DNA from: Candidatus Poribacteria bacterium
GTDB lineage: Bacteria > Poribacteria > WGA-4E > WGA-3G
Length of the DNA: 64,000 nucleotides
NCBI GenBank assembly: GCA_965205015.1
Contig: OZ242029.1
Span: 1,504,001-1,568,000 of the forward strand
Direction: 5' to 3'
Below, in pieces: positions 7,177 to 26,432 of this stretch. The position numbers were made by a program, and so were the translations under genes. How positions within the stretch are numbered: the first letter of the stretch is position 1; each line of letters begins with the position of its first letter. The notes beneath the pieces were generated by a model. The model did no database searches. It was not told where the DNA came from and saw nothing but the letters and a program-made list of their open reading frames with translations.

Positions 7177-7239
7177 GATAGATTCCTCGAATTTTTCGTT
7201 TTTTAACCTAATGCTCTGTCAGGATTATTTTGAGAGGTT

Positions 7240-7270: not shown

Positions 7271-7567
7271 GTATTCTGCCAATCTAATCTATCAGCGTAG
7301 AGGTGACAGAACACGAACCTATAGGTAGAAGCGATTTTCAAGCGTGCTTCCTGAAATGAATTGCTTCAATTCCCACCGCGCATTTTGAGGTTGTCGTTAC
7401 TACAAACGAGTTTGAAAAAAGTTGCATTTTATTTTAATTTTAAATTTTCAGAATACTTACAATCCCATGAAATTTCACTAACGAAAGTCTCTACATGTTT
7501 TCGGACTTTATGGTAACCTCTATCCAACCGCAACGAGATATACACAAATCTACTGAATCCCGCCGCG

Positions 7568-9013: not shown

Positions 9014-9025
9014 TTTCAATAGTCC

Positions 9026-9103
9026 TCAGCAATCAGCAGTCAGCAGTCAGCAAGATAGTAGCCAGCCATTTTTCCGACAACTGACGACTGACAACCGACA
9101 ACC
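9026..9103. repeat. Heptamer-array inverted repeat element (family B: (TCAGCAG/TCGGTTN)n ... (CTGACAA/CCGACAA)n)
   Basis: tcagcaa-tcagcag-tcagcag-tcagcaa ... ccgacaa-ctgacga-ctgacaa-ccgacaa; related copies at 705-753, 47305-47391, 49894-50062, 54878-54946, 56186-56300, 61935-62066. Confidence 0.7.
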
Positions 9104-9107
9104 ATTT

Positions 9108-10631: not shown

Positions 10632-10658
10632 CAAGGCACCTCCGATAGTAGGTTTCGG

Positions 10659-10726
10659 TTCGTAGTAGGGCGATTCATCGCCCGTTTGTCCCGCGAAGGA
10701 TGCGCAATGAATTGCGCTACTACAAA
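10659..10726. repeat. REP doublet (REPIN-like)
   Basis: GTAGTAGGGCGATTCATCGCCC ... GCGCAATGAATTGCGCTACTAC in inverted orientation. Confidence 0.75.
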
Positions 10727-10792
10727 CAACGATGAACCACCCTCAACTATTTATTCTCCATTGATCGCTCAGATTGCATATCCTGCAGATGC

Positions 10793-11602
10793 CTATTCAT
10801 AAACGATTGTCCGTCGCTTAATATCCCCCCAAGTGGTGGCAATTTTGTCTCTTGATGAAACCGCGAGAAAGTCTTTCATTGCTTCCGTAATTTCGGCTTC
10901 GGTGAGGGCACGTCGCCAGACACCCACTTCGTCAATAGAACCGTTTCTGAAGATATATCCCGGATGGCCTACCGCGCATCCAATGCGCAGATCTGAGTCA
11001 TTAGTTCCCATGAATTCAAACTCCTGCTCGCCATCAGAACGGATTACGCCATCCAGATAGATTCTCTTGGTCTTACCATCGTAAGTTCCTGCGATGTGAT
11101 GCCAGCTTTTATTTTCCATGGGTCCCGAGGTGATGAATCTCTTCTCCCCCCGACCTTCACCCAAGATCATGCCGATCTTTGGACCCTTGAATTCAATATG
11201 ACTTTCAAAGAACCCCATGCTGTAGGACCGCTTCTGATGAATCGGGTTTTGACTGCCTCTATCAAGCCACGCTCCCCAAGCCTTTTCCCAATCTTCATGA
11301 TATACCCAAGCCATCATTGTTATCTCATCTTCTATTTTTAGAAGGTCGTCCGCCGGGATATTGACGCACTCATCGCCTTCTGCTGCAGCGGCAATATGAA
11401 TCGCATCTCCATACTTGCCTTTAACAAAATCTACATTGGCGACGACATCGGCATGGAGATCATTGCCAGAGGCATCCAGAATCTTCTTGCCCTTCACGTT
11501 GTCAAAGGTAAAATAAAAAACAAGGTCATCCTCCAGTTCAGCAGTCGCTTGGCTTGTTGTGAATAATAGTGCAGCGATGAAAAGAAATGCTATCGATTTC
11601 AT
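10793..11602 (-). CDS. Secreted LamG-like jellyroll protein with C-terminal DKIATTWGDIK motif
   Basis: Signal peptide; LVFYFTFD, WHHIAGTYDG, GSIDEVGVWRRAL. Confidence 0.85.
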   Translation of the reverse strand: MKSIAFLFIAALLFTTSQATAELEDDLVFYFTFDNVKGKKILDASGNDLHADVVANVDFVKGKYGDAIHIAAAAEGDECVNIPADDLLKIEDEITMMAWVYHEDWEKAWGAWLDRGSQNPIHQKRSYSMGFFESHIEFKGPKIGMILGEGRGEKRFITSGPMENKSWHHIAGTYDGKTKRIYLDGVIRSDGEQEFEFMGTNDSDLRIGCAVGHPGYIFRNGSIDEVGVWRRALTEAEITEAMKDFLAVSSRDKIATTWGDIKRRTIVYE

Positions 11603-11634
11603 TGATACTTCCTCCCAGAGATTTCAAAATCCAA

Positions 11635-12438
11635 TTAGTCAGCAACTGCCCTCTGCTTCACATCGCCCCAAGTGGCGGCAACCTTGTCTTCCGGTGAAAC
11701 TACGAGGAAACCTTTCATCGCCTTCTCAATTTCCGCCTGAGAGAGCGCACGTCGCCAGACACCCACTTCGTCAATAGAGCCATTCTTGAAGGTATACTGT
11801 GGATGGTTTTTGGTACATCCGATGCGAAGGTCTATGTCATTGGCCCCACTGAATTCAAATGCTCTGTCAACGTTGGAGAGGATTTCGCCATTCAAATAGA
11901 TCTTTGCGGTCTTACCATCGTAAGTCCCAGCAATGTGGTGCCAGTTTTTATCTACCATTGCCCCCGTGGTGTTGAAGCCATACACGGCTTGGATTCCGCC
12001 TAAACGCATTCCAATATTTGGGCCCTTGAATGCCCCGACATCATTGATGAGTCCCATACTGTAGCCCTTCTTCTCCTCACCCAAAACATAACTACCCTTG
12101 TCAAACCACATTCCTGAATTCTTATCCCAATCTTCATTGAATACCCAAGCCATCATCGTTATCTTGTCTTCGAGTTTTAACAGATCATCCGTGGGGATAT
12201 GGACGCACTCATCGTCTTCCGCTACAGCGGCAATATGAAGCGCATTCCCATATTTGCCTTTGACAAAATCTACATTTGCGATGATTTCAGCATCAAGATC
12301 ATTGCCAGAGGCATCAAGAACCCTCTTACCCTTCACGTTGTCAAAGGAAAAAAACACAACCAGATCTTTATCGAGTCCCGCAAAGACTTGGCTCCCTGCA
12401 AATAGTACAAGAATCAAAGGAAATAGTATCCGTTTCAT
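11635..12438 (-). CDS. Secreted LamG-like jellyroll protein with C-terminal DKVAATWGDVK motif (paralog of 10793..11602)
   Basis: Signal peptide; WHHIAGTYDG, GSIDEVGVWRRAL; 4-bp overlap with upstream gene. Confidence 0.85.
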   Translation of the reverse strand: MKRILFPLILVLFAGSQVFAGLDKDLVVFFSFDNVKGKRVLDASGNDLDAEIIANVDFVKGKYGNALHIAAVAEDDECVHIPTDDLLKLEDKITMMAWVFNEDWDKNSGMWFDKGSYVLGEEKKGYSMGLINDVGAFKGPNIGMRLGGIQAVYGFNTTGAMVDKNWHHIAGTYDGKTAKIYLNGEILSNVDRAFEFSGANDIDLRIGCTKNHPQYTFKNGSIDEVGVWRRALSQAEIEKAMKGFLVVSPEDKVAATWGDVKQRAVAD

Positions 12439-15428
12439 TTTTTCTCCTCCAATGGATATTGATGTGGAACGATTTCAACAATTTTATCTCCAGCGTTCGC
12501 CTCGAAAAAGGCGGCAACATCATCAATCATCTCAGTCTTGATTTCATGTCTGGTATTCTCGTAGGTAACAAATTGCGCAGGAATACCAAGTGCCGTGTAT
12601 ATCGCCTGACTCATGTCCCATCGATCCGGCATCATTTTCGCGCCAATGAGGCTTTTGACCAACTCGGCATCCACCTCATCATAAGCATCCGGATACGGAA
12701 GGGTATCATTGTCATCCAAGGCACCCATGTAGATGTACTGGGAGACTTTTTTATACGCTGCTTCATCAAAGTCAACCCCAGCGATCTCTTTCACGTCCGC
12801 AATTCCAACCGGGTAACGCATCGTCGTACCGTTCCATTGACCCGTTGGGAAGGTCGGAATGCAGTTGATGCCACCCGTTGCGACAGCGCGAACAACCGTT
12901 GGGTGTAAAATGGTAAACCGATTTGTAAATGTCCCGGAAGCTGAAAACCCGTTCATGAAGACCTTCTCATCCACCTTGACATCATTGTGTCGTAGGAGCC
13001 TTTGGGCATGATTTATCATTCTGATGAGTTGCAAGTCGATCCGCCTAAGTCCTCCTTCTTGAATCAGGAGGGTATCTCTATCTAAAGCGTGCGTGTAGAT
13101 ATGTCCCCGATCTCCGCCGGGTCTCGGAAAAACTGGAACGAGCAATGGGACTTTCAGTTTTCTTGCGATTGCAGTCGCATGCGATCCCTCCGCTAATTCC
13201 TTTGTACTCCTATCGTGGATTTTAAAATTGTCACTCAGTGTTCCCGTGTTGCAAGGCTCTATCAGTAGATGAACCGGTTTGCTGGAATCCATTCCTCGTG
13301 GAACGAACAGATAATACGGAAAAGCAAATCCTTCTGTGAGGTCGGCTGAAATGCGATAAAGCAATTCATTCGAGAGATCGAGTTCTTCAATATCTGTTAC
13401 ATGGATAGGTGTCATATCCACAAAAGTAGGCGTAACTGGATCGGGACCTTCCGTTGTAAATGTTAGGATATACTCTTCCAGCGGAACGCCAGTCATATTC
13501 CTGTAACCTTCATTGCGTCCCAATATAAGTCTATAGATTTTTGAAGGTGATAGACGTTGATTAAACGAAATAACGAGGGTTGTATTGTCATCTTCCCACT
13601 GGATATCACCGAGTGGAACCCCGGCAAACCCGACATCCATTCCCTGCATCCTCTCGCTGAAGACGATTCGTATCTCTTTCAGATCCGTAGAAACTTTTTT
13701 AGATACGTCGGGAATAGTTCTTTCTACTTTTGGCGGTGTTGTCCCTTGTTGCGCCAAATCGGCATTTTCGGCGACTTGCCATTTCTCAATAACCGCTTCG
13801 TCCCGGTAACTATTTTGCCATCTATATGTCCACGTGTTATCAATCTGCAAGGGAAGGTATTCTTCTCCTTTGGCTGGAACATTGTATTCAAGCAGCTCCG
13901 CCTCCGTAACGACACCGTTGGCATGTTCATAGCGCATTTTCACGAGTCCAACACCTTTAGCGAACCATAAATAACGCGTGCCGTTGACAAGCGAACTCTT
14001 GCGCTCAGCACCGGCATTAGCACCTGTGAAGACGGTTTTATGCTTCAGGCATATTGTGAAAATGTCCGCGGAGACATCCACGGCTTCATAGCCCTCCAAG
14101 GTTGTCTCCACCTGTGAATCCCAATCCCCTTCCTGGGTCCAAGTATCTCCAACAACCAGGGGAAATCTAAATAGGTCTGTTGGATGGTGCACAAGATAAC
14201 GGACCAACATGTACCTCGGCGATGGATCGTTTTTCCCCATTCCACGAGTTTGATAACTTGCGGAGGTCAAAGCCGTATCGGTTTCCCTGAGCGTAACAGT
14301 GCCATCCGCCAAATGTTGTCCGGTTTCCGTAGCAGCGTTGGCACTTAGAACAATGGTGCGTTCATCTGAATATTGATACGGGTTAATTTCAACTATATCG
14401 GCACCCGAATTCGCCTCAAAAAACGCGACGACATCATCAATCATCTCCCGCCTGATTTCATGTCGAGTATTCTCATAAGTAACAAATTGCGCGGGAATTT
14501 CAAGTGTCTTGTATATCGACTGACTCACGTCCCACCGATCCGGCATCATTTTCGCGCCGATGAGGCTTTTGACTAACTCGGCATCTACTTCATCATAAGC
14601 ATCCCGGTACGGAACGGTATCGTTGTTATCCAACGCACCCATATAAATGTATTGGGAGACACGTTTATATGCCGCTTCGTCAAAGTCAATCCCGGTGATC
14701 TCTTTTACGTCCGCTATGCCGACGGGATAACGCATTGGGGTCCCGTTCCATTGATCTGTTGGGAAGGTCAGAATGCAGTTGACACCCCCCGTCGCGACGG
14801 CTCGGACAATCTTTGGGTGCAAAATCGCAAACCGATTCGTAAACGTCCCAGAAGCTGAAAATCCGTTCATGAAAACTCGCTCATTTATCTTCATGTTGTT
14901 GTGCCGCAGGAGCCCTTGGGCATGATTTATCATTTTGATCAGCTGCAGGTCAATTCTCTTGAGATCTCCGTCCGCAATCAGAAGGGTGTCTCTATCTAAG
15001 GAATGCGTATAGATTCGCCACCGCTCTCCACCCGGTCTCGGGAAAACAGGCACCAGTAGCGGAACTCCTAACTTGCGTGCGATTTTGTTAGCGTGGGAGG
15101 ATTTTTTTAATGCCAAGGACTTTGCTTTGCTATCATGGCGTTCAAAATCGTCACTGGTCGTTCCTGTATTACACGGTTCTACGAATAGATGAACCGGTTT
15201 GCTGGAATCCATCCCTTCTGGGACAAACAGATAATATGGGAAGGAAAATCCGGCTGCAGGGTTTGCTGATACACGTGCAGCTAACCCCTTTGAAAGATCC
15301 AGGTTCCCGGTATCTTCAATGTGAACAAAATCAATGGGTAGTGCTGTATCTTGCTGCGCCAAAAGGGTGGCTGATGCCCCGCACAAAAAGATCATTAACA
15401 CGCCCAACAGGATAAAAGGGGTTGCCAT
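12435..15428 (-). CDS. Secreted multidomain protein: alpha/beta-hydrolase - shared beta module - Ig-like (Big_5-like) - alpha/beta-hydrolase
   Basis: Signal peptide; two near-identical copies of MNGFSASG, GALD(N/D)ND and ENTRHEI; central NGTRYLWFAKGVGLVKMRYEHANG module; TPPKVERTIP..IRIVFSERM..YILTFTT. Confidence 0.75.
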   Translation of the reverse strand: MATPFILLGVLMIFLCGASATLLAQQDTALPIDFVHIEDTGNLDLSKGLAARVSANPAAGFSFPYYLFVPEGMDSSKPVHLFVEPCNTGTTSDDFERHDSKAKSLALKKSSHANKIARKLGVPLLVPVFPRPGGERWRIYTHSLDRDTLLIADGDLKRIDLQLIKMINHAQGLLRHNNMKINERVFMNGFSASGTFTNRFAILHPKIVRAVATGGVNCILTFPTDQWNGTPMRYPVGIADVKEITGIDFDEAAYKRVSQYIYMGALDNNDTVPYRDAYDEVDAELVKSLIGAKMMPDRWDVSQSIYKTLEIPAQFVTYENTRHEIRREMIDDVVAFFEANSGADIVEINPYQYSDERTIVLSANAATETGQHLADGTVTLRETDTALTSASYQTRGMGKNDPSPRYMLVRYLVHHPTDLFRFPLVVGDTWTQEGDWDSQVETTLEGYEAVDVSADIFTICLKHKTVFTGANAGAERKSSLVNGTRYLWFAKGVGLVKMRYEHANGVVTEAELLEYNVPAKGEEYLPLQIDNTWTYRWQNSYRDEAVIEKWQVAENADLAQQGTTPPKVERTIPDVSKKVSTDLKEIRIVFSERMQGMDVGFAGVPLGDIQWEDDNTTLVISFNQRLSPSKIYRLILGRNEGYRNMTGVPLEEYILTFTTEGPDPVTPTFVDMTPIHVTDIEELDLSNELLYRISADLTEGFAFPYYLFVPRGMDSSKPVHLLIEPCNTGTLSDNFKIHDRSTKELAEGSHATAIARKLKVPLLVPVFPRPGGDRGHIYTHALDRDTLLIQEGGLRRIDLQLIRMINHAQRLLRHNDVKVDEKVFMNGFSASGTFTNRFTILHPTVVRAVATGGINCIPTFPTGQWNGTTMRYPVGIADVKEIAGVDFDEAAYKKVSQYIYMGALDDNDTLPYPDAYDEVDAELVKSLIGAKMMPDRWDMSQAIYTALGIPAQFVTYENTRHEIKTEMIDDVAAFFEANAGDKIVEIVPHQYPLEEKK

Positions 15429-15498
15429 TTTTTATCTTCTCCTAATTTCGCTTGAAAACCGATGAAATCTCAAGGGACAATTTGAAAAATATATATTA

Positions 15499-15568
15499 CC
15501 TTGTGACGCTATGTCGTATTTTAAGGGCGGAAAGGTTGCATAAAATGAATTTTATGCCAATTTTTTTG
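15499..15568 (-). promoter_or_regulatory. Putative ECF sigma promoter (TGCAACC-N17-CGACAT) with overlapping palindrome, copy 2
   Basis: ~70-bp block nearly identical to 24612-24683; GCATAAAAT-GA-ATTTTATGC palindrome overlaps the -35. Confidence 0.7.
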
Positions 15569-15638
15569 CTAACTATGGTAAATTTCAGAATGACTTGGAC
15601 ATTGTGACCCGTGAATTTTCGGGTCAAAGGAGGCGTGA

Positions 15639-16778
15639 ATGGATACCTTATCTACGCATAACTGTTCCCCGGAAAACCGTGTGGATGATCTGTTACGACC
15701 GGAAGTGCTTCAGGCGTTTGAGCGTGCTACGTTTGAGCGCGATGGATATTGGGTGTGGGAAGGGATACTGACGGACGCTGCCCGTAAACGGTGGACAGCC
15801 AGCTTGCAGAAGTTACAGCAGATGAACGATGCGATCCTCATGGATACGGAGTGGAGTGCTATCGACTTTGAGGCGCGGGGATTTCCTCCGCCTTCGCCTG
15901 AACAAATCACACCGGAGTTTTTGGCAGCGTGCTGTGGCGGTTCAGAGCAAATGCCGGGTTTCCTCAGAACCGCTGAGTTGCGTCAATATATGCACACCTA
16001 CGGGCTATTCGGGCCGGGAGCGGCGTTGATCACACATGGATTCGAGTCGCAAGGCGTTATGCCGGAATACTTCCCTGCCGGATATGACGAATTTATCATG
16101 GATGTGACCAGTGCTCACCCGCAAATGATGGCACTCTTCACGAAACTTTTCGGGGACCGATTCATACTTGACCACTGTTTTATGCTCAACCGGGCGATCG
16201 GTTCAAAAGGACGTCGATGGCATGCACATCAGTATCGGGATGGGCAGTACGAAGTTGAGGACCCCATTGGGACCGGAAACGCCCTTACCCCTGAATTTCT
16301 AAAACGACAGTGTATTCGGACGCTGTGCTATCCAGAAGGGGCAACCATCGAAGAGGGTGGAGAACTTGCGATTATCCCTGGAGCGCATCTCTATCGCATT
16401 CCGTACAAATGGAGCACAGAACGACCCGATGATGACGCTGCCATGAAAGCAGGGTGGTTGAAGGGTAAAATTCACGCCTTTACAAGGAAACCCTTAGAAA
16501 TTGTACATCTCTCGCTACCGCCCGGAAGCATGGTGTCCTTTGTCCATCATATGCCGCATTATGTTGGTTATCGAAAACCGGGGACGACGACTCGGTGGGG
16601 ACTCCTGATGGCGTATCGAACGCCCGACCCGGATGCAGAACCGGAAAAGTGGACAAATGGTATTCCCACCCATTGGGTGGAACAGGCCGCGGCTCAAGGA
16701 AAGCTGTCTGCTGCGGCGCAGCGTGTGTTTGAGGCTGATAATCCCATCCACAAGCATCTGAGAACGTACCGGTCATAA
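15639..16778 (+). CDS. Phytanoyl-CoA dioxygenase (PhyH)-like Fe(II)/2OG oxygenase
   Basis: FERDGYWVWEGIL, RRWHAH, LAIIPGAHL, LPPGSMVSFVHHMPH; GGAGG RBS. Confidence 0.7.
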   Translation: MDTLSTHNCSPENRVDDLLRPEVLQAFERATFERDGYWVWEGILTDAARKRWTASLQKLQQMNDAILMDTEWSAIDFEARGFPPPSPEQITPEFLAACCGGSEQMPGFLRTAELRQYMHTYGLFGPGAALITHGFESQGVMPEYFPAGYDEFIMDVTSAHPQMMALFTKLFGDRFILDHCFMLNRAIGSKGRRWHAHQYRDGQYEVEDPIGTGNALTPEFLKRQCIRTLCYPEGATIEEGGELAIIPGAHLYRIPYKWSTERPDDDAAMKAGWLKGKIHAFTRKPLEIVHLSLPPGSMVSFVHHMPHYVGYRKPGTTTRWGLLMAYRTPDPDAEPEKWTNGIPTHWVEQAAAQGKLSAAAQRVFEADNPIHKHLRTYRS

Positions 16779-16809
16779 TGTCCAAGTCATGCTAAAATTT
16801 ACCATAAAA

Positions 16810-19182
16810 TTACCGACTGTTGCCCAATATTTCTGACCAGATCGAACGTTGCGATCCTGTACTATCTGCGCTTTTCGTGATGGTAACACCAATAGTATCC
16901 GCTTCCAACGGCGGTTTCTTGGAAGCGTCCCCACCTAATGTAACAGGTAAGATCATTTCTGTACCCTCTCGTCCAAGGGTTAACTCCACCACATCGCCGG
17001 ATTTCCACCGCTTGGCAAGTTTCGCTATGTCGCTAAATGAATTCACGGGTGTACCATTGATGGCAGCCAGATGATCTCCATCTTGATACGCAGGGGATTT
17101 ATCAATAATCACATCCCCCGCCGGCGTTTGTGTAAGGGACCGGATACCGAGCATCTCTTTGAAAACATAACCGAGGTCGGGAAGTTCCTCCTCTATCTGT
17201 ACATCCAGACCCGCCTCTCCGAAATATTCAGCGAGCGGCAATTTTTCCGTTCCCGAAACATACTTTCGGAAGAACGGCTCAAAATTTTTATCCGCAACGT
17301 CAGTAACAATGCGGATGACATCATCTATCGTATACTTTTCACCGGTGGTCCCAAACTCCTGATACATCTGCTTCATTACGTCGTCCAGACTCTTTTGTCC
17401 CGCGTCTATTGAGACGTGTGTGAGTTTGCGGATTTGCACATCTAATGCAGCGGCAACCAGACCGCCACCGCGATAGACTAAACCCGAGTTCGCCATTTTG
17501 GCTTCACCCGCCCTGCGTAGGGAGAGTTTCCCCACCTGACCCAGATACGACTCACAGGAACGCCCAAGGTTTTTGAGGAAATCGCCTTCAGAAAGGAGCC
17601 CAAGCTGAACAGAGATAATCCTTGAATAATAATCGGTGAACCCTTCCATAAACCAGTATTCCTGCTCATCAAAAAAATCAATAGCTGTGCCGATCCAGAT
17701 ATGGCAAATTTCATGTGCGACCAGCGGCACCCAAAAATTCTTACTGGTTTCATCTAAGGATCCACCCATCAGAACGCTGATGCTGTGTCCAGAAACACCG
17801 CCGCACGTTTCACCTTTCCCGCCATAAGGATTTGCGACAAATAGCATCCTGCCCTTCGGGGTACCACCGAATACCCTTGAATACGCGTGTAAAAGTGCTT
17901 CCACTGTGCGTTGCATTTCATCAGCGGCGGCTTTAAAGCGCCCACCGATTGCGACTACAATCTCCGCCTCTTTAGACTTCGCCACCTTCTCAGAATGCGT
18001 GCCAAGCACCATATACGCATACATCAAATCGTCCTGATCTCCAATAGCAAAACGGTGTCCTTTATCGCCAATGCGCTGCCAAGGGGTCGAGACGTGCCAA
18101 TTCTCTGGCACATCAACATAGAGTTCGATATCGCTCGCCTCACCAACGATAAACAAGGCATATCCAGGACAGAAAATACAGTCTTCTTGGAGATATGGAG
18201 CCTCACTCTGACCGGTGGGCCACTCTCGTTCATCATGGTTCAGCAGTACTTTGTAACTCAGCGTCACAGGCGATTTATCCGTTGTTTTAATTGCCCAACG
18301 CGTTTTACCGAGGAGCACCTGTGGCAATTTTTCTCCGTCAGCATTCGTGACTGATATATCCCTGAGGTACCTTTCATATCCATCATGTATATTTTCCGTG
18401 CCAAACTCACTCATGGATAACAAGAGGGTCTCGCCACTGTTCCGTTTTGGGGTTAAGACGCAACTGACGTGCGCCACGCGTCGCTCATCAGCATCTATTT
18501 TGATCTCATACCTCGCTGACGCAAGTTCCATCGGGTTCCCTAAATCTTCAGGTTTTTCAAAATTTCTGACGACGCGACACGTCTCAATAACCGCTTCGTC
18601 ACGATAATCGTTCTGCCACTTATATCGCCACATATTACCGACTTGTAAGGGAAGGTATTCTTGTGCTTCGGTAGGAACTTCATATTCAAGCAACTCAGCT
18701 TCCGTAACAACACCGTTGGCATGCTCATAACGCATCTTTACAACTCCAATGCCTTCGGCGAACCATAGATAGCGCGTGCCGTTCACAAGCGAGTTTCGCT
18801 GTTCAGAACCCGCTTCCGCGTCCGTAAAGACTGTCTTATGCTTTAGGCAATCAGAAAAGATGCCTGCGGAAATTTTTACCGACTCATAGCCTTCCAAGCT
18901 TGTCTTTGTCCGCGTGTTCCAGTGTCCTCCTTCCGTCCAGATATCCCCAATCCTTATAGGAAATCGAAAGAGGTCAGTTTCATGGTGACTGATATAATAC
19001 AGCAACATATACCTCGGCGATGGATCGCTCCCACCGGTCCCACTGGAGCCAAAATCGGTGGATGTCAAAGCCGTATCGGTTCTTTCGAGATCGAAAACGC
19101 CTTCTGCCAAACGCATTCCACTTTCTGTAGCGGCACTGGCACTCAGGACGATGTTACGTTCGGATTTAATCGTTTCTTCCAT
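16810..19182 (-). CDS. M61-like zinc metallopeptidase with PDZ domain and N-terminal shared beta module (predicted active)
   Basis: VAHEICHIW...WFMEGFTDYY gluzincin motif; YRGGGLVAAALDVQIR, SLDDVMK; PDZ-like C-terminus; start MEETIKSERN at 19182 matches paralog start. Confidence 0.8.
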   Translation of the reverse strand: MEETIKSERNIVLSASAATESGMRLAEGVFDLERTDTALTSTDFGSSGTGGSDPSPRYMLLYYISHHETDLFRFPIRIGDIWTEGGHWNTRTKTSLEGYESVKISAGIFSDCLKHKTVFTDAEAGSEQRNSLVNGTRYLWFAEGIGVVKMRYEHANGVVTEAELLEYEVPTEAQEYLPLQVGNMWRYKWQNDYRDEAVIETCRVVRNFEKPEDLGNPMELASARYEIKIDADERRVAHVSCVLTPKRNSGETLLLSMSEFGTENIHDGYERYLRDISVTNADGEKLPQVLLGKTRWAIKTTDKSPVTLSYKVLLNHDEREWPTGQSEAPYLQEDCIFCPGYALFIVGEASDIELYVDVPENWHVSTPWQRIGDKGHRFAIGDQDDLMYAYMVLGTHSEKVAKSKEAEIVVAIGGRFKAAADEMQRTVEALLHAYSRVFGGTPKGRMLFVANPYGGKGETCGGVSGHSISVLMGGSLDETSKNFWVPLVAHEICHIWIGTAIDFFDEQEYWFMEGFTDYYSRIISVQLGLLSEGDFLKNLGRSCESYLGQVGKLSLRRAGEAKMANSGLVYRGGGLVAAALDVQIRKLTHVSIDAGQKSLDDVMKQMYQEFGTTGEKYTIDDVIRIVTDVADKNFEPFFRKYVSGTEKLPLAEYFGEAGLDVQIEEELPDLGYVFKEMLGIRSLTQTPAGDVIIDKSPAYQDGDHLAAINGTPVNSFSDIAKLAKRWKSGDVVELTLGREGTEMILPVTLGGDASKKPPLEADTIGVTITKSADSTGSQRSIWSEILGNSR

Positions 19183-21586
19183 CAGTGCCTTCCTCACAAA
19201 AGTTGCCCTTGCCCAATATTCCTGACCAAATTGCCCGTTGCGCTTGTGTGCTATTTGCGCTTTTGGTGATGGTAACATCAATAGGACCCGCCTCCAACGG
19301 AGGGCTTTTAGACGCGTCCCCGCCTAACGTGACAGGTAGGATAATTTCTTTACCCTCCCTTTCAAGGGTTAACTTTACCATCTCACCCGGTTTCCACGCT
19401 TTGGCAGCCTTTCTGATGTCGTCAAAAAATTTCACCGGTGTGCCGTTGACACCTATCAGATTGTCCTCATCTTGATACTGCTCGGACTGGTGGATAAACA
19501 TACCGCCCCCTGTTGGTCCCCCGATTGAACTGATACCAAGCATCTCATGAACGACATACCCGAAACGCGGCAGCTCTTCGCTAAATTCTACATTTGCATC
19601 CACACCTGCATCTCCGAGATATTCCGTCAGGGGCAACCGATCTGTCCCTGAAACATACTTGCAGAAGAACGGTTCCAAATCTTCACCCGCAATTTGACCG
19701 ACAATTCTGATGACATCCTTCATTGTGTATTTGCTTCCGGTGAGACCGAATTCTTGATACATCTGCTTCATCACATCGTCCAAACTCTTCCGGTTTTGCG
19801 TGAGACTGCGAATCCGTAAATCCAGAGCCGCAGCAATGAGACTTCCTCCCTGATAGACGAGTTCACGGTTGGCGGATTTGTCTTCACCCGCCTCGCGGAT
19901 AGAAAGCTGCCCCTGTCGAGAGAGATACGATTCACACTTGCGTTCCAGATCCCTGAGAAAATCATTTTCAGAGGTTAATCCGAGACGGGTACAGATAATT
20001 CTCGAATAGTATTCGGTGAAACCTTCGCTAAGCCAGTATTCCTGCCATTTAAAATCGATAGTTTTTCCGATCCAGATATGGCAAATCTCATGCGCAACCA
20101 GCGGCACCCAAAAACTTCTATCGGTTTCACTCAAAGACCCACTCGTCAGAACAGTGATACTGCTTCCAGAAACACCGCCTCCGCGGTGTTTCTCATTGGG
20201 ATTTGCCACAAACAGCATACGATCCTGTGGCGTACCATCGAAAACTCCGGAATACGCGTGCAAGAGTGATTTAACAGTTTTTTGAACTTCATCCATAGAC
20301 GCCTTGAAGCGTCCACCCAGTGCAAGCACAATCTCGGGCTCTCCCGTCCCTCTTGACAAACGTGCCAACCTCTCAGAATGCGTTCCAAGTAAGAGATAGG
20401 CAGATATCAAATTGTTCTGGTCGGTGATAGCAAAACGGTGTCCCTGGTTTCCAATACGTTGCCAAGATGTTGAAACATGCCAATTTTCAGGAACATCAAG
20501 ATACAGTTCGATATCCTCCACTTCTGCGGCGATGAACAGAGCATATCCGGGCCAAAAAATACAGTCCTCTTGGATGTAAGGGGTTTCAGGCTTACCCCAC
20601 TGCCATTCCCTCTCATCATGATTTAGTAACACTTTGTAATGCAATGTCACAGGTAAGTCATTCTCGGTTTCAATCATCCACTGTGTTTTGCCAATCTCTG
20701 TGACGGGTATTTTTTCACCATTAGCATCTGTGCCGCTTAGATCTCGCAGATATCTGCCATATCCCTCGTAGAGACCTTCCGTCCCAAAATGGCTCATGGA
20801 TAATAGCAACGGCTTTCGGTCGCCTTTTGTATCATGGGTCGCCTTTGGTGTTAAGACACACGTGACATGTGCGACACGCCGTTCAGCAGCATCTATTTTA
20901 ACTTGATACTGCGCCGACGCGAGTTCCATCGGATTATCAAGATTCTCAGGCTCACTGAAATTTCGGATGACGCGCCACTCCTCAATAGTTGCCTCGTCGC
21001 GAGAGATGTTCTGCCACCTGTATGTCCACTGTGTGCCAATCTGGACAGGGAGGTACTCTTGTGCCTCAACAGGCATCTCGTATTCAAGCAACTCGGCTTC
21101 CGTAACGATACCGTTGGAATGTTCATAACACATTTTCACGAGTCCAACACCCTTAGCGAACCACAAATAACGGGTGCCGTTCACAAACGCATTCCGCAGT
21201 TGAGCGTCGGCATCCTCAGCATCAGCGTTTGTGAAGACAGTTTTATGTTTAAGGCATGACGAAAAAGCCCCCGCGGAAACCTCAACTGTCTCAGACCCTT
21301 CCAAAGTTATCGTTGCTTCTGATTTGCAAGGACCCTCCTGCCGCCAATGATTTCCGATAACCACAGGAAATCTAAAGAGGTCACTCTCACCCCCATAGCT
21401 AACATGGCGTAGCAACATGTACATCGGGGAGCCAAGACTGCGCCCTTCCGTAGAAGAACCATTAGATGTCAAAGCCTCATTGGTCTTCTTGAAATTAAAA
21501 ATTCCTTCTGCCAAATGCACTCCATCTTCCGTAGCGGCACTGTTACTAAAGACAATATTACGTTCGGATTTAATCGTTTCTTTCAT
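19166..21586 (-). CDS. M61-like zinc metallopeptidase with PDZ domain and N-terminal shared beta module (predicted active)
   Basis: VAHEICHIW...WLSEGFTEYY; YQGGSLIAAALDLRIR; start overlaps upstream stop (TGATG). Confidence 0.8.
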   Translation of the reverse strand: MKETIKSERNIVFSNSAATEDGVHLAEGIFNFKKTNEALTSNGSSTEGRSLGSPMYMLLRHVSYGGESDLFRFPVVIGNHWRQEGPCKSEATITLEGSETVEVSAGAFSSCLKHKTVFTNADAEDADAQLRNAFVNGTRYLWFAKGVGLVKMCYEHSNGIVTEAELLEYEMPVEAQEYLPVQIGTQWTYRWQNISRDEATIEEWRVIRNFSEPENLDNPMELASAQYQVKIDAAERRVAHVTCVLTPKATHDTKGDRKPLLLSMSHFGTEGLYEGYGRYLRDLSGTDANGEKIPVTEIGKTQWMIETENDLPVTLHYKVLLNHDEREWQWGKPETPYIQEDCIFWPGYALFIAAEVEDIELYLDVPENWHVSTSWQRIGNQGHRFAITDQNNLISAYLLLGTHSERLARLSRGTGEPEIVLALGGRFKASMDEVQKTVKSLLHAYSGVFDGTPQDRMLFVANPNEKHRGGGVSGSSITVLTSGSLSETDRSFWVPLVAHEICHIWIGKTIDFKWQEYWLSEGFTEYYSRIICTRLGLTSENDFLRDLERKCESYLSRQGQLSIREAGEDKSANRELVYQGGSLIAAALDLRIRSLTQNRKSLDDVMKQMYQEFGLTGSKYTMKDVIRIVGQIAGEDLEPFFCKYVSGTDRLPLTEYLGDAGVDANVEFSEELPRFGYVVHEMLGISSIGGPTGGGMFIHQSEQYQDEDNLIGVNGTPVKFFDDIRKAAKAWKPGEMVKLTLEREGKEIILPVTLGGDASKSPPLEAGPIDVTITKSANSTQAQRAIWSGILGKGNFCEEGTDGRND

Positions 21587-24552
21587 CAGTCAGAATTCTC
21601 CTTGCCTAACATTCCTAACCAGATGGCGCGTTGCGAGTCCGTGGCATCCGCGCTCTTTGTGATGGTAACATCAATAGGTCCAGCTTCAAGGGGAGGTTTT
21701 TCAGATGTGTTACCCGCTAATGCGACCGGTAGGGTAATTTCCTCCCCCTCTCTCTCAAGCGTTAACGCTACGACATCACCGGAACGCCAATCTTTGGCAA
21801 CCTTTCTAATGTCGTCAAACGTCTTCACCGAGGTACCGTTGATGCTTATCAACGCATCGTCATCCTGATATTGCGGTGACTGATGGATGAACATACCGCC
21901 GCCTGTTGGTCCACCAAGTGAATTGATATGAAGCATCTGAAAAAGAATATACCCAAGACTTGGAAGTCTTTCGCCAAAGTCTATCTCAACACTCATACCC
22001 GCGTCCTTAAGATATTTCTCTAACGGCAACCGCTCTGTCCCTGCCACATATTTGTGGAAGAAGGGTTTAAAATCTTCACCCGTCATTTGGCTGACGATCC
22101 GGATGACATCGTTCATTGTATACCTAATATCGGTAAGACCGAATTCTTGATACATCTGCTTCATCACATCGTCCAAGCTGCTTCGGTTCTGTGTAAGTGT
22201 ACGGATCTGTAAATCCAGAGTAGCGGCGACTAAACTGCCACCGTCATAGACGAGTTCGCGGTTGGCGGATTTGTCTTTCCCTGCCTCGCGAATCGAAAGT
22301 TGTCCGTGTCGAGATAGATAAGATTTCCACCTGCGTTCAAACTTCCTGAGAAAATCGCTTTCAGAAATAAGTCCAAGGCGGGCAGAAACAACATCTGAGT
22401 AATATCCTGTGAAACCTGCGCTAAACCAATACTCCTGTTCCCTAAAAGTGATAGCCTGACCCGCAACCCAGAGACAGCAAACCATATATCCCACAAGCGG
22501 CAGCCAAAAACGTCTGCTCGCTTCATCTAATTCACCACCGATCAGCACGCTGATGCTGCGTCCGGACGCGCCTCCACTCATGTGTCCCTTTTCACCATAG
22601 GGGTTTGCAACAAACAACAGTTTACCTTCCGGGGTGCCACCGAATATCCCAGAATATGCGTCCAGAAGTCCCTCAATAGTCCCCTGTATTTCATTCATAG
22701 ACGCTTTGAAGTGTGCCCCAGTCACCAGCACAACCTCGGTATCCCCAACCTTTGCCAGACGCTCAGCGTGTTCACCGAGCACAAGATACGCATACATCAA
22801 GTCGTCGTGATCTTTACAAACGAAACGGTGCCCCTCAGACGCAATCCGTTCCCAAGGTGTTGAAACACGCCAATTCTCTGGCACATCCACACACAGTTCG
22901 ACATCGCTCGTCTCACCGACAACAAACAGCGCATACCCTGGACAGAAAATACAATCCTCTTGGACATAAGGGGCTTCATCTGGACCCGGTGCCCATTCCC
23001 ATTCATCGTGATTCAGCAACACTTTGTAACGCACCGTTATAGGTGATGCGTCCCGTGCTTTAACTAACCATTGCGTTTTGCCGATCTCCTCTACCGGCAA
23101 TGTTTCACCGTTTACATCGGTCACCGTCAAATCTCGAAGATACCGGGCATACCCATCATATACCCATTCAGCCCCAAAACGACTCATGGATAACAGCAAA
23201 GGCTTTTGCTCCCCTTTTGTACTGCCAACTTTCGGCGTTAGTACACACTTGACATGCGCCACGCGTCGTTCATCGGCATCTATTTTAACGTCATATCTCG
23301 CTGACGCAAGTTCCATGAGATTATCAAGATTTTCGGGATGACTGAAATTCCGGAGGACGCGCCACTCTTCAACGATCGCCTCATCGCGATAATCGTTGTG
23401 CCATCTGTATGTCCACTGCGTGCCAATTTGCGAAGGTAGGTATTCTTGTTCTTGGACGGGGATCTCATATTCAAGCAATTCGGCTTCTGTAATGACACCA
23501 TTGGCATGCTCATAGCGCATCTTCACGATCCCAACGCCCTCGGCAAACCACAGATAACGCGTGCCGTTTAGGTATGCGTTTCCCCCTTCAGCGTCGGGGT
23601 CTTCCACGTCAGCATCTGTGAAGACAGTTTTATGCTTCAGGCACGATCGGAAACTCCCAGCGGAGATTTCGACAGTCTCATACCCTTCCAAGGTTATCGT
23701 CGCTTTCGATTTGTAAGGACCTTCCTGCTCCCAACGACTTCCAATAACCAAAGGGAATTTAAAGAGGTTTATCTCATTACGACGGTGGTTAATATAGTGT
23801 AGCAACATGTACATTGGTAGCGGGTAGTCCCCTCTGAGCCCTGTCGTACGAGAACCCATAGATGCGAAAACCTTATCGGTTTGGCTGAGATCAAAACCCC
23901 CTTCCGCCAAATGTTTACCGGTTTCCATTGCCGCAGTTGCTTGAACACCAATGTATCGCTGTTCGTTTTTTAATAAATTCGGACTCAAGTTTTCCCGAAG
24001 CATCGACTCCTCCTGCTCCAATCGCTTCCGTGCACGATATAGTCGACTTTTTACTGTGTTCAAAGATACATCTAAACGCTCACTCACTTCCTCACATGTC
24101 AGACCGTTGAAATAGTGCAATATCATCACCGAACGCTCACTGGGCGTCAGTTTTTGGAGGAGGCGTTCCACGACTTCACGCAGTCCCTCCCTTGACGCTT
24201 GTGTTTGCTCTTTCTCAAGATATTGCGTATAGAACACTCCCTCTAACTCGGCTTTCGGCATCGCATCCAAAGACTGCATCGTCATCGGCTCTCGTCGCAG
24301 CCATTCAATACACTGACGTTTCGCTATGACATGTAACCACCCCGAAAAACGATTGGGGTCTCTCAAGCTTGGAAGCGACTTAAAAGCCTGGATGAAGGTG
24401 TCCTGTGTAATCTCCTGTGCGGCGTGGAAATCACCGATCTCACGCCACGCGAGCGAATGAATCCATTTCCGGTGTCTTTCCACCAGCGCGGTGAACGCAC
24501 CTTCATCGCCCGACAAGATGCGTTGAATCAGATTAACATCTTCGTTTTTCAC
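21586..24552 (-). CDS. ECF sigma-70 factor fused to shared beta module and a catalytically degenerate M61-like peptidase/PDZ
   Basis: Sigma region 2 (AQEITQDTFIQAF..FSGWLHVIA) and region 4 (LTCEEVSERLDVSLNTVKSRLYRARKRL); HEICH..E replaced by YMVCC..A; GTG start at 24552 after GGAGG, matching MKNNDIQLIQR of the sigma at 57671. Confidence 0.85.
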   Translation of the reverse strand: MKNEDVNLIQRILSGDEGAFTALVERHRKWIHSLAWREIGDFHAAQEITQDTFIQAFKSLPSLRDPNRFSGWLHVIAKRQCIEWLRREPMTMQSLDAMPKAELEGVFYTQYLEKEQTQASREGLREVVERLLQKLTPSERSVMILHYFNGLTCEEVSERLDVSLNTVKSRLYRARKRLEQEESMLRENLSPNLLKNEQRYIGVQATAAMETGKHLAEGGFDLSQTDKVFASMGSRTTGLRGDYPLPMYMLLHYINHRRNEINLFKFPLVIGSRWEQEGPYKSKATITLEGYETVEISAGSFRSCLKHKTVFTDADVEDPDAEGGNAYLNGTRYLWFAEGVGIVKMRYEHANGVITEAELLEYEIPVQEQEYLPSQIGTQWTYRWHNDYRDEAIVEEWRVLRNFSHPENLDNLMELASARYDVKIDADERRVAHVKCVLTPKVGSTKGEQKPLLLSMSRFGAEWVYDGYARYLRDLTVTDVNGETLPVEEIGKTQWLVKARDASPITVRYKVLLNHDEWEWAPGPDEAPYVQEDCIFCPGYALFVVGETSDVELCVDVPENWRVSTPWERIASEGHRFVCKDHDDLMYAYLVLGEHAERLAKVGDTEVVLVTGAHFKASMNEIQGTIEGLLDAYSGIFGGTPEGKLLFVANPYGEKGHMSGGASGRSISVLIGGELDEASRRFWLPLVGYMVCCLWVAGQAITFREQEYWFSAGFTGYYSDVVSARLGLISESDFLRKFERRWKSYLSRHGQLSIREAGKDKSANRELVYDGGSLVAATLDLQIRTLTQNRSSLDDVMKQMYQEFGLTDIRYTMNDVIRIVSQMTGEDFKPFFHKYVAGTERLPLEKYLKDAGMSVEIDFGERLPSLGYILFQMLHINSLGGPTGGGMFIHQSPQYQDDDALISINGTSVKTFDDIRKVAKDWRSGDVVALTLEREGEEITLPVALAGNTSEKPPLEAGPIDVTITKSADATDSQRAIWLGMLGKENSD

Positions 24553-24611
24553 GATGACCCTCCAAGTCATTTGATAGCAAGTTTCGGAGACCTGTAAGCT
24601 TCGCCGAAATG

Positions 24612-24683
24612 CCTTGTGACGTTATGTCGTATTTTAACGGGGGTAAGGTTGCATAAAATGCAATTTTATCTAAAATTTTTTTG
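24612..24683 (-). promoter_or_regulatory. Putative autoregulatory ECF sigma promoter (TGCAACC-N17-CGACAT), copy 1
   Basis: AAC-type -35 and CG-type -10 with ECF-like spacing upstream of the sigma gene; duplicated at 15499-15568. Confidence 0.7.
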
Positions 24684-24906
24684 TTGTGGGAAAAAAATAA
24701 AGGAAGATGTCTGTGGACTATCGTATCTTTAATCAATACCACCAACTTTCATGCGCCAGTGGTGCGCGATTGAGCGTATCCCGATATGTCCGCCATTAAG
24801 GAATTGCTGAAGGTGTTCGGTCCCTTTCGCGAGTTGATAGATGTGTTGCAGACGCGCTGTTACGATCTCCCGCTGCGAGGTTCCGCCACCAAATCGCCAA
24901 TATTGT

Positions 24907-24959
24907 CGGGAATCGGAGTTCCCTCCTACAGAAGAGAGGCGAGGTTGGGAAACCTCGCC
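24907..24959. repeat. REP-like hairpin cluster adjacent to IS left end
   Basis: Reverse strand GTAGGAGGGAACTCCGATTCCC and hairpin GGCGAGGTT-GGGA-AACCTCGCC. Confidence 0.55.
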
Positions 24960-25091
24960 AGCGAAGGAGGTGCGTTTATCAAAACCTCCGAGTCTAAAAC
25001 CCCCTGCTTCAGCTGGGGGATACAGACTCGCTTTTGTGGACAGGGCCACGGGGTTATCTGTGAAAATTAATGTGCTTTTGCAGGCAAATCG

Positions 25092-25100
25092 TGGTATAAT
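25092..25100 (+). promoter_or_regulatory. Extended -10 promoter element for tnpB
   Basis: TGGTATAAT about 105 bp upstream of tnpB ATG. Confidence 0.45.
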
Positions 25101-25205
25101 GAAAGTATCGTATGAGGACCGGCATTATCAGCGTTACGGACTTGGGAGCGTGTCGGTTCCACCCACTGAGAAGGGGTAAAAGATGCGATATGCGAGAATC
25201 CAGCA

Positions 25206-26432
25206 ATGCCGAAGTTTCACCGCACCGATATCCTGAAAATAGAACCTCAACCGATATATGCTGAGATCAATGAGGCGTCGGGGTCTGTATGGAACGAGTG
25301 TCTCTCTCAAATGTCAATGTATCAGTGGCACCGTGGGTATCCTCACGCGTGGGACTTTTTCTACTTTGGTCCGGAGTGTGAAGGCTGGATTGATAAAAGG
25401 CTTACCAAATCCCAACCTTTGCATTCACAAAGTATTCAAGCTGTTCGTGAACGTTACTTTAAATCTTGGGAGTCCTATCGTATTCTGAAAAAGGGTAACC
25501 CAACTGCGAGACCCCCACGGAAGCCGAAACGCTTTTTGACGACCCGTTGGAAAAAATCAGCGATTCGCTTTCAAGACGGCTGCGTCTCTCTGTCAATGGG
25601 ACTGGGTAGAGATCGCCTCTGTATCCCTTTGCCTTCCAACTTCAATATGTCCAAAACGGAGCAGATTGCGACGATTGATTTGGTCTACACCTTCGGTCAA
25701 TGGGAACTCCATTTCTCCTATAGATACGAACTGGAAAAGACCGAAACAGGTAAAGGGGTTGTCGGCGTTGATATTGGTGAAATACACCCGATTGTGAGTC
25801 ATGACGGAACAGACACACGGATTTTCAATGGACGGTATATCCGCTCGCTCTATCGCCATAGAAACAAAGTGATTGCCGAGTTCAGTCAAGCCATCAGTCG
25901 GTGTAAACGCCATTCGAAACGCTGGTGGAAACTCACGCGTCGGAAGTGGAAATGTATCAAAAAGATTGACAATCAGCTTAAAGATGCGTTGCATCAACAT
26001 ACCTGTAAGTTTCTAAAGTATTGCAACCTCAAAGGCATCGGCACGATTGTGCTTGGCGACCTCACCGGTATCCGTCATCGCATTCACTACGGAAAACGTG
26101 CCAACCAGAAACTTCACCAGTGGGCTTTTGGTAAAATCACAGCATTGCTAACCTACAAAGCGAAGGTGTTTGGTATCAAGGTTGTGCAGATTGACGAAGC
26201 CTACACCTCACAAACTTGCCCAAGCTGTGGCAATCGGAAGAAACCTACAAATCGGACCTATACCTGCCCCTGCGGGTTCAAATACCATCGCGACGGTGTA
26301 GGTGCTATCAATATCAGAGCAAAGTATCTGGGACACTTTGGTGTCCCCGTAGTGGCGGACATGGACCTGCGAACCATGAAGATGACACCGCCCTTGGGCT
26401 TTCGATTGAAAGTCCCTGTTGCCTCGTCTTAG
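25206..26432 (+). CDS. tnpB: TnpB RNA-guided endonuclease (rearranged RuvC-II type)
   Basis: RuvC-I GVDIG, RuvC-II IVLGDL with downstream DEAYTSQTC, zinc finger CPSC..CPCG, RuvC-III HRDGVGAINI. Confidence 0.92.
   Translation: MPKFHRTDILKIEPQPIYAEINEASGSVWNECLSQMSMYQWHRGYPHAWDFFYFGPECEGWIDKRLTKSQPLHSQSIQAVRERYFKSWESYRILKKGNPTARPPRKPKRFLTTRWKKSAIRFQDGCVSLSMGLGRDRLCIPLPSNFNMSKTEQIATIDLVYTFGQWELHFSYRYELEKTETGKGVVGVDIGEIHPIVSHDGTDTRIFNGRYIRSLYRHRNKVIAEFSQAISRCKRHSKRWWKLTRRKWKCIKKIDNQLKDALHQHTCKFLKYCNLKGIGTIVLGDLTGIRHRIHYGKRANQKLHQWAFGKITALLTYKAKVFGIKVVQIDEAYTSQTCPSCGNRKKPTNRTYTCPCGFKYHRDGVGAINIRAKYLGHFGVPVVADMDLRTMKMTPPLGFRLKVPVASS

Follow-up and report, generated by a model that had tools for sequence, protein, structure and literature searches.

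Why an extracytoplasmic function (ECF) sigma factor should carry, as its C-terminal extension, a peptidase that has lost its zinc site, directly ahead of two copies that have kept it, is the question raised by a locus of a Candidatus Poribacteria bacterium (assembly GCA_965205015.1, contig OZ242029.1, forward-strand positions 1,504,001 to 1,568,000; this whole stretch of 64,000 nt is referred to below as the window, with positions counted from its first letter). Three overlapping minus-strand genes each encode a series of domains, [LolA-like beta module]-[M61_N]-[M61]-[PDZ], with an ECF sigma factor at the N-terminus of the first only; re-translation confirmed these tandem paralogs, their shared architecture and their coordinates as proposed by a first-pass annotation made from the sequence alone. 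The analysis presented here supports the view of the extension as a maintained, non-catalytic, soluble pseudo-peptidase, and the fused protein belongs to a conserved and apparently undescribed family of Candidatus Poribacteria, a variant of those ECF sigmas that carry regulatory extensions. The functional reading that we consider moderately probable is that of a soluble, autoregulated, ECF57-like sigma factor whose extension would act as a non-catalytic binding module (sensor or autoinhibitory) setting the engagement of the sigma with RNA polymerase.

The zinc site of the fused peptidase and its constraint

In the fused copy, YMVCC (22474-22488) stands in place of HEXXH and SAGF (22411-22422) in place of xEGF, while the zinc site is intact in unfused paralog 1 (HEICH 20078-20092, WLSEGF 20018-20035) and in unfused paralog 2 (HEICH 17701-17715, WFMEGF 17638-17655). 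The positions assigned to these motifs in the first-pass annotation proved exact, and its claim that all key catalytic residues are lost in the fused copy only holds as well. A search of 5.8 billion proteins returned 389 matches, and the best 120 of these 389, to which our figures on homologs refer, include 119 with sigma domains (~985-1005 aa; the few named ones are 'Candidatus Poribacteria'). HEXXH is absent from 118 of them, affected by a deletion in one and kept in one (P0105, with HEIGH and SEGF), the replacements varying by sub-clade (YMVSS, RLVCY, NVVGY, GVVCY, HxVGY).

A locus scan with one genome per species yielded 50 loci, all of them in Poribacteria. An adjacent unfused M61 gene (defined as one starting -130 to +60 nt from the stop of the fusion) is present in 18 of the 31 loci with a complete fusion, a contig-cut one in 2 and none in 11. 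The predicted contrast between consistent loss of HEXXH in fusions and its retention in unfused neighbours is borne out, with the motif kept in 1/120 of the former vs. 18/18 complete adjacent copies, 17 of which have no N-terminal hydrophobic segment.

We have also compared, over ~580 alignment columns, 50 dead fused sequences with 48 active ones (35 unfused from the loci and 13 distant active relatives). Exactly three columns are conserved at >=90% in the active set and kept in <=15% of the dead set, namely the HEXXH Glu, the second His and the EGF Glu, so that the loss is indeed limited to catalytic and zinc-binding positions, as had been suspected from the window alone. None of the 50 dead sequences retains the catalytic Glu, the residue there being V, L, M or I. 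The mean majority fraction is 0.795 in the dead set vs. 0.769 in the active one, and six columns are conserved in the dead clade only (W469, E574, V584, C585, E600, D776).

Selection was assessed by pairwise Nei-Gojobori estimates of nonsynonymous (dN) and synonymous (dS) divergence across 18 genomes with both a fused and an adjacent unfused gene (123/153 pairs, with a whole-gene dS of 0.05-1.2). The dead catalytic domain (dN 0.160, dN/dS 0.169) is nearly indistinguishable from the same region of the adjacent unfused gene (dN 0.166, dN/dS 0.171), with the sigma core at dN 0.076 and dN/dS 0.074; the ratios are rough because dS is ~0.9-1.0, near saturation, and more reliance can be placed on the equality of dN. 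The adjacent set itself mixes clades: 14 genes are P0002-type, three P0003-type, like the third gene of the window (loci L011, L019 and L025, the last presumed so, since its row is in neither of the trees described below) and one is exported (L017). The dN/dS check on the dead domain thus points to the same constraint as on the active paralog and to no relaxed decay. A decaying pseudogene, considered as a candidate explanation, is ruled out by this constraint and by reading frames that are intact in the 31 complete loci.

Sigma core and architecture of the extension

The layout of the locus and of its same-strand surroundings is listed below, with the source of each assignment in brackets where one applies.

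24626-24653, minus strand: ECF-type promoter-like motif, copy 1, 5' of the sigma fusion gene (exact match)
24553-24625, minus strand: 5' leader comprising a GGAGG ribosome-binding site and a hairpin-like stretch that is conserved but not present in every locus (upstream alignment)
23986-24552, minus strand: ECF sigma core (sigma2 + sigma4), residues 7-195 (Pfam, NCBIfam, start conservation)
23311-23985, minus strand: beta module, residues 196-420, after a short low-confidence linker (13-strand, LolA-superfamily-like / DUF3108-like)
22771-23310, minus strand: Peptidase_M61_N beta-sandwich, residues 421-600 (Pfam PF17899, Foldseek)
21976-22770, minus strand: M61 catalytic-fold domain without zinc site, residues 601-865 (YMVCC, SAGF)
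21586-21975, minus strand: PDZ-like domain and C-terminal tail, residues 866-994 plus stop (sub-threshold Pfam, AlphaFold2)
19166-21586, minus strand: unfused paralog 1, 806 aa, beta module-M61_N-M61-PDZ, no signal peptide (ATGA overlap with the stop of the fused gene)
16810-19182, minus strand: unfused paralog 2, ~790 aa, laid out as paralog 1, no signal peptide
15513-15540, minus strand: promoter-like motif, copy 2, 84 nt 5' of the gene for the 997-aa protein (exact match)
12435-15428, minus strand: 997-aa exported protein, predicted regulon member (motif copy 2 upstream)
3150-12438, minus strand: downstream same-strand cluster with two Laminin_G_3 proteins, two ABC-2 permease pairs and a 294-aa DUF3108-like protein (Pfam)

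By translation, the three open reading frames (ORFs) of the minus strand span 21586-24570 (994 aa), 19166-21586 (806 aa) and 16810-19281 (823 aa), and over the common part the fused protein is 65% identical to paralog 1 and 59% to paralog 2. The fused gene most likely starts at a putative GTG at 24552, with GGAGG 7 nt upstream; this start is kept as M/V-KNEDV in 27/27 loci where the pattern used located the start motif, the same pattern missing 10 further fused ORFs. For the third gene the most likely start is ATG 19182 (MEETIKSERN), which leaves a 17-nt overlap with the end of the second gene.

The N-terminal part of the fused protein is a canonical sigma core by Pfam (Sigma70_r2, PF04542, 55.9 bits; Sigma70_r4_2, PF08281, 61.6 bits; PF07638, 40.3 bits) and by TIGR02937 (sigma70-ECF, 94.9 bits vs. 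a cut-off of 42.9). It is not an orphan: it is 47-54% identical to the cores of fusions in which a transmembrane (TM) segment connects a sigma to WD40 repeats (47% to the one in the window, at 57671-60760), and both share the cysteine pair of ECF57. The two cysteines, C87 in sigma2 and C159 in sigma4, are invariant across 112 aligned fused proteins, align with cysteines of the WD40 paralog and are also found in the sigma-beta paralogs described below. PMC8999054 attributes to ECF57 both WD40-like extensions and a conserved pair of cysteines that might connect sigma2 with sigma4. Because of the match of C87/C159 to this description and the kinship with the WD40 paralog, we regard the core as probably ECF57-like.

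Like the planctomycete ECF57 proteins, the fused protein has one conserved cysteine each in sigma2 and sigma4, a very long C-terminal extension, no separate anti-sigma factor and many paralogs per genome. Unlike them, it has a beta module, a pseudo-M61 and a PDZ domain in place of WD40 (no WD40 Pfam match is found in it), and no TM segment separates sigma from extension. The window's own ECF57-like membrane-tethered fusion (57671-60760, plus strand) is an ECF sigma paralog of 1029 aa in which a single TM segment (residues 221-246) comes before WD40 propellers; a related two-block element, ATGCACCC ... GCGTC, lies upstream. Tandem arrays of sigma-TM-WD40-type fusions occur in related genomes. 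With ECF41 and ECF42 the present protein has in common a soluble sigma, a fused C-terminal domain thought to be regulatory in cis, the lack of an anti-sigma and autoregulation, putative in the present case (according to the consulted parts of PMC8999054 and PMC7826278). It differs from them in an extension 4-8 times longer, derived from an enzyme family whose active form is also encoded in its own operon, and in that neither SnoaL nor TPR is found in it by Pfam.

Pfam matches to the peptidase part of the fused protein are above cut-off for Peptidase_M61_N (PF17899, 46.8 bits) and Peptidase_M61 (PF05299, 26.6 bits), as they are in all three proteins, and Peptidase_M1 is also matched in the two unfused copies. 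PDZ_2 remains below its cut-off of 27 bits in the fused protein P0001 (17.3) and in P0003 (18.5), with clear matches in relatives (78 bits in P0125, 37.7 in P0132) and an AlphaFold2 (AF2) predicted local distance difference test score (pLDDT) of 82-92 for the PDZ/C-terminal block. The full-length AF2 model of the fused protein, although only moderate overall (pLDDT 72.6, predicted TM-score, pTM, 0.56), matches 4fgm in Foldseek at E 8.2e-28, as well as 8j9c and 7xyo, which confirms the M61 fold; by phmmer, 4fgm matches the fused protein at 1.8e-13. A complex prediction for sigma (1-195) against extension (196-994) gave no answer, with a score of 0.01 vs. a mark of 0.32, and counts neither way.

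The M61 peptidases of known structure (4fgm, 8j9c/8j9d, 7xyo) share the M61_N + M61 + PDZ architecture and fold with the proteins studied here, and both HEXXH and the Glu downstream of it survive in paralogs 1 and 2. The differences are the loss of all zinc ligands in the fused copy and an additional N-terminal LolA-like beta module in all three copies. The active paralogs may not be classical aminopeptidases, because no Glu occurs where they align with the GxMEN/GGLEH region.

The lack of an obvious signal peptide or TM segment, noted for all three proteins in the first-pass annotation, was confirmed by a Kyte-Doolittle scan (highest 19-residue means of 1.59, 1.00 and 1.30); none of 112 fused homologs reaches the value of 1.8 expected of a TM-like segment. 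Nor is an anti-sigma-like ORF evident, as the first-pass annotation had noted, among the Pfam-scanned neighbours (TnpB, an enolase-superfamily enzyme, M61 genes) or the small ORFs at 24571-25205 read by eye. An assembly chimera is ruled out by recurrence of the fusion in ~46 genomes, closed chromosomes included.

The beta module was modelled alone by AF2 from a 71-sequence alignment (pLDDT 85.3, pTM 0.84). Foldseek relates it to LolA3 (9tp6), LolA-superfamily proteins (3buu, 3bk5) and a YmcC-like protein (3fzx), with a probability of 1.0 but a TM-score of 0.35-0.39 and an rmsd of ~11 A, and PF21347 (DUF3108_like) scores 17 bits, below cut-off, in the window proteins and 40.4 bits, above it, in the relative P0127. 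A look-up in the ESM Atlas with the module gave no usable match. Within the phylum the module is mobile: it occurs in one or two copies ahead of exported M61 domains, behind a TM segment in other sigma fusions (P0141), as two copies in TM-less sigma proteins of ~950 aa (P0174, P0256, P0272) and in the 997-aa protein of the window, whose residues 354-555 are 54% identical to the fused copy. A 419-aa TM-less protein consisting of an ECF sigma and the beta module only, 43-47% identical to the fusion, is widespread in Poribacteria genomes. The recurrent partner of this sigma lineage is thus the sigma-proximal beta module and not M61, and, because it recurs and forms the sigma-beta extension alone, it qualifies as a candidate for the regulatory contact no less than the dead peptidase does. 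Of the sigma-beta loci inspected (L055 7932-9191, L058 7445-8704, L056 and L057), 4/4 have two ABC-2 permease genes following the sigma-beta gene, and the L055 gene is preceded by TGCAACCTT...CGTC. There is also a dead-fusion variant of ~790-800 aa with no beta module (P0291, P0292 and L030 9440-11842).

Promoter motif, gene neighbourhood and history

The claim of a promoter within 24612-24683 is supported by a conserved promoter-like motif of 28 nt, TGCAACCTT-N7-TTAAAA-N2-CGAC, lying inside this interval (24626-24653). The window contains two exact copies of it vs. 0.01 expected, and a near-invariant upstream block, AAAATGCATTTTATGCAACCTT-N7-TTAAAATACGACATAACG, is present in 26/28 aligned loci whose proteins share only 67-86% identity. 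From its position, conservation and ECF-like two-block form we infer that this motif is the promoter recognised by this sigma, which would make the gene putatively autoregulated. Scans of 12000-25300 for sigma-70-type promoters and for terminators returned background only (14 vs. 16.8 expected and 13 vs. 12.6, respectively). A search for RNA runs covering 15300-24800 listed none. The leader (24553-24625) contains a conserved stretch, TTTCGGCGAAGCTTGCAGGTTTCCGAAAC, that forms a hairpin and is deleted in 4 loci; it was dropped as a candidate regulatory RNA, its fold being no better than that of shuffled sequences (z -0.72).

A relaxed search allowing <=2 mismatches in the 50 loci and the window gave 57 matches: 38 before sigma-fusion genes, 17 before other same-strand genes and 2 near locus ends. 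The M61 genes preceded by the motif encode membrane-anchored HEVFH forms (L021, L023, L026), an exported HEVVH form (L020) and an HEVVH fragment (L014). It is also found before genes for the 997-aa protein, which has a signal-like N-terminal segment, an ABC-2 permease (L015), a Laminin_G_3 protein (L027), a TonB-receptor-like protein (L021), a DUF4097-like protein (L001) and several family-less proteins of 220-525 aa, with an N-terminal hydrophobic segment in all but L016. The presence of exported proteins in this predicted regulon means that the signal need not be the purely cytoplasmic peptide first envisaged.

The overlap of fused gene and paralog 1 at ATGA, a case of translational coupling, is also seen in most loci that have the paralog. 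The paralogs themselves are less constant than the fusion: when five whole genomes were searched with the unfused paralog at E<=1e-20, three of them (G003, G004, G005) gave no full-length match other than the fused gene. Across 175 Poribacteria genomes, 55 match P0105 at E<=1e-250, and ~46 (a count of listed rows) have a full-length fusion. P0105, in genome G081, is fused, TM-less and endowed with HEIGH/SEGF; the promoter motif stands upstream of its gene too, two ABC-2 permease genes come after it, and no second M61 gene was detected in G081 at E<=1e-250.

In L013 a homolog of the 997-aa protein is encoded downstream of the fusion. A 379-aa ORF of the window (15639-16778, plus strand), located between the third M61 gene and motif copy 2, has neither a Pfam family nor a hydrophobic segment. 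Further downstream (3150-10634, minus strand), two ABC-2 permease pairs (ABC2_membrane_2 + DUF3526) flank the 294-aa DUF3108-like protein, with no ATPase gene seen among the ORFs scanned; such permease pairs recur beside sigma-beta and sigma-M61 genes in other genomes. By position and by analogy with other loci, the cluster at 3150-12438 may be tied to the sigma. On the other side, a divergent TnpB-like gene (25206-26432, plus strand; OrfB_IS605 and Cas12f1-like TNB domains) lies upstream of the sigma promoter, and the interval 24700-25200, with short odd ORFs only, may be the end of the TnpB element. Elsewhere in the window (38079-46547, minus strand), three giant genes encode two FGE-sulfatase-domain proteins (1010 and 934 aa, the second with TonB_C) and an 831-aa protein with FRG, TPR and TaqI_C.

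Trees of the M61_N-to-PDZ region (100 rows, and 84 rows with additions) were obtained by quick searches and rooted on distant outgroups. The fused-dead sequences form one group (SH-aLRT, the Shimodaira-Hasegawa-like approximate likelihood ratio test, 88 and 84), with the clade of paralog 1 as its sister, and together with the adjacent-active (second-gene) sequences and P0105 they form one clade (SH-aLRT 100). Paralog 2 groups with signal-peptide M61 proteins (HEVVH, ~1230 aa, Big_5 N-terminus) and membrane-anchored ones (HEVFH, ~870 aa). Just below the crown clade branch P0274, P0275 and P0277 (1096-1102 aa), sigma-TM(219-241)-beta-M61-PDZ proteins with HEIFH/HEVVH and the Glu. They share with the fusion a sigma lineage (49-50% identical) and the same beta-M61-PDZ module, and differ from it in a TM segment and a kept zinc site. 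Given the position of this segment (~219-241), their peptidase part is predicted to lie outside the cytoplasm. Where the TM-less fusion runs from '...SPNLLKNE' straight into the beta module, these forms have the membrane segment and a ~100-residue linker, and the TGCAACCTT motif was not found upstream of their genes. Both P0275 (L059 6223-9546) and P0274 (L060 5480-8791), with intact HEIFH, are located inside arrays of other sigma-TM fusions and amount to membrane-tethered sigmas that bear an apparently active external peptidase.

The fusion probably predates the catalytic loss, as the P0105/G081 lineage is fused and still HEIGH/SEGF. A likely history would start with a sigma-TM-beta-M61(active)-PDZ protein whose peptidase was outside the cytoplasm; loss of the TM segment and linker would have given a cytoplasmic fused active form, as in G081, followed by tandem duplication and, finally, by loss of catalysis in the fused copy. 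This order of events is tentative because of the distant outgroups used for rooting and the quick tree searches. A separate fusion is represented by P0129 (1018 aa, on one contig), a sigma-TM-Big_5-M61 protein with RELFH...SEGF, whose sole replaced zinc ligand is the first His, now Arg, as in the RLVCY sub-clade. Its sigma is 31% identical to that of P0001, and identity to sigma-DUF4159 (PF13709) proteins reaches 76% over the N-terminal third that is matched. As a candidate case of independent fusion with independent loss it was given little weight, being a single cluster on one contig with the first His alone lost.

Possible roles of the extension

In the reading that we favor, the extension of ~800 residues, a full copy of the phylum's own peptidase with the zinc-binding and catalytic residues alone replaced, would bind a ligand, and its occupancy would set the availability of the sigma. 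Released sigma would transcribe its own operon, including in many genomes one or two intact signal-peptide-less paralogs, as well as the motif-bearing neighbours (exported beta-module proteins, M61 peptidases, ABC-2 permeases and lectin-like proteins). The extension probably controls the sigma and may bind a peptide-like or hydrophobic ligand or a paralog; its role as a sensor is plausible, and a feedback loop of some kind might follow.

Several observations weigh against this reading, beginning with the rough dN/dS ratios, the mixed adjacent set and the merely moderate full-length model mentioned above, and with a monophyly of the fused-dead sequences at only 84-88 SH-aLRT. The existence of sigma-beta proteins with no M61 and of sigma-M61 proteins with no beta module means that neither sub-domain is indispensable across the lineage, and inactivity is not required for fusion as such, because P0105 is fused yet retains its active site. 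The counts of loci (11/31) and genomes (3/5) lacking the unfused paralog speak against any mechanism that depends on it. A loop in which a peptide switches the sigma on and the peptidases switch it off is weakened on three points: the paralogs are often absent, a fused form with the catalytic motif exists and the predicted regulon includes exported proteins. Negative feedback by co-induced active peptidases, proposed in the first-pass annotation, is, by the above counts of loci and genomes, not general and cannot be the core mechanism. What stands of that interpretation is the targeted, family-wide loss, the constraint and the promoter.

A more specific version, which we regard as possible but doubtful, sees here a hitherto undescribed class of one-component ECF sigma, with a pseudoenzyme as sensor that copies the peptidases under its control. 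Substrate, product or the peptidases themselves would be bound, with no turnover, by the dead M61-PDZ and the LolA-like module, and this occupancy would be coupled to transcription of the active family members, cytoplasmic and exported, the whole having arisen from a membrane-tethered sigma-peptidase by TM loss, tandem duplication and subfunctionalisation. In the sigma-E envelope stress response, RseB is a LolA-like ligand sensor, the PDZ domains of DegS and RseP read protein C-termini, and RseP is a zinc metalloprotease. By analogy, and as a lead only, the same kinds of domain (LolA-like, PDZ, metalloprotease) all stand behind the present sigma; unlike in that pathway, they are part of one soluble polypeptide with an inactive protease-like domain, and there is no homology (M61 vs. 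M50).

Pairing of enzyme and pseudoenzyme is a rather unlikely alternative. The dead M61-PDZ/beta module would bind the active paralogs or the beta-module proteins of the regulon, so that products titrate the sigma or the pseudoenzyme regulates the peptidases. The translational coupling of fused gene and paralog 1, the sister relation of their clades and the presence of the same beta module in several predicted regulon genes are all in its favor, and the regulation of active cousins is a common role of pseudoenzymes according to the consulted part of a pseudopeptidase review. These points are offset by the complete loci with no adjacent unfused M61 and by the three genomes with no full-length unfused paralog at all; moreover, several regulon proteins are exported, so their contact with the sigma could be transient only.

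We give still less credence to a passenger domain, for which catalysis became useless or harmful once TM loss had made it cytoplasmic, and which is kept for folding or stability, the sigma being controlled by transcription, by the cysteine pair or by the beta module alone. Retention of the active site in TM-containing relatives and its loss in TM-less ones would fit such a history, as would the widespread sigma-beta-only proteins and an invariant cysteine pair common to ECF57. However, ~580 residues are constrained like those of the active enzyme at divergence down to 66% identity, the six positions conserved in the dead clade only are difficult to reconcile with it, and the cell tolerates active paralogs in its cytoplasm, where activity thus does no harm as such.

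Proteolytic activation, in which active paralogs or housekeeping proteases cut the linker (~residues 189-204) and free the sigma, appears improbable, although this mode has been proposed for other sigma fusions with an anti-sigma-like extension. The pLDDT of the linker is <50, the peptidases are presumably co-transcribed, and the consulted part of a review of non-canonical ECF sigmas has a class of extensions 'activated by proteolysis' (e.g., IutY). Yet M61 enzymes are aminopeptidases according to PDB titles and as such poor candidates for an internal cut, the paralogs are missing from many genomes, and class-I anti-sigma-like helices were not detected in the extension by Pfam. Finally, catalysis by other residues or another metal site can be practically dismissed: among the 118 dead homologs the first His is kept in 20 and the third-ligand Glu in 14, and Cys, Tyr or Arg often occupy former ligand positions, but these residues vary by sub-clade, so that no single alternative site is conserved, and the catalytic Glu is gone from every dead sequence tallied.

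The first-pass statement that no described ECF group has this architecture agrees with the main text of the ECF re-classification (PMC7826278), from which the words 'peptidase', 'PDZ' and 'WD40' are absent, its supplementary group descriptions being excepted and possibly bearing on novelty. It also agrees with the consulted parts of the non-canonical ECF review, where peptidases figure only as sigma-degrading enzymes and PDZ is unmentioned. A 2024 review of pseudo-metallopeptidases (PMC11266112) mentions neither M61 nor sigma. A literature search of titles and abstracts found no M61 or any other pseudopeptidase joined to a sigma factor.

Of the branches of signal transduction in bacteria, that of ECF sigma factors with fused regulatory extensions is the least understood, and, to our knowledge, only few types of extension (SnoaL, TPR, Cys-rich, anti-sigma-like) have been given any mechanism. 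The family described here adds an extension recognisable as an enzyme turned binding module, together with a natural series of controls: fused-active (G081), fused-dead, unfused-active, sigma-beta only and membrane-tethered active forms. With a sharply defined promoter motif, which makes the regulon predictable, and a soluble sigma with no separate anti-sigma to account for, these features would together allow a heterologous test of a pseudoenzyme gating a transcription factor. They also offer a first handle on regulation in Poribacteria, uncultured symbionts of sponges.

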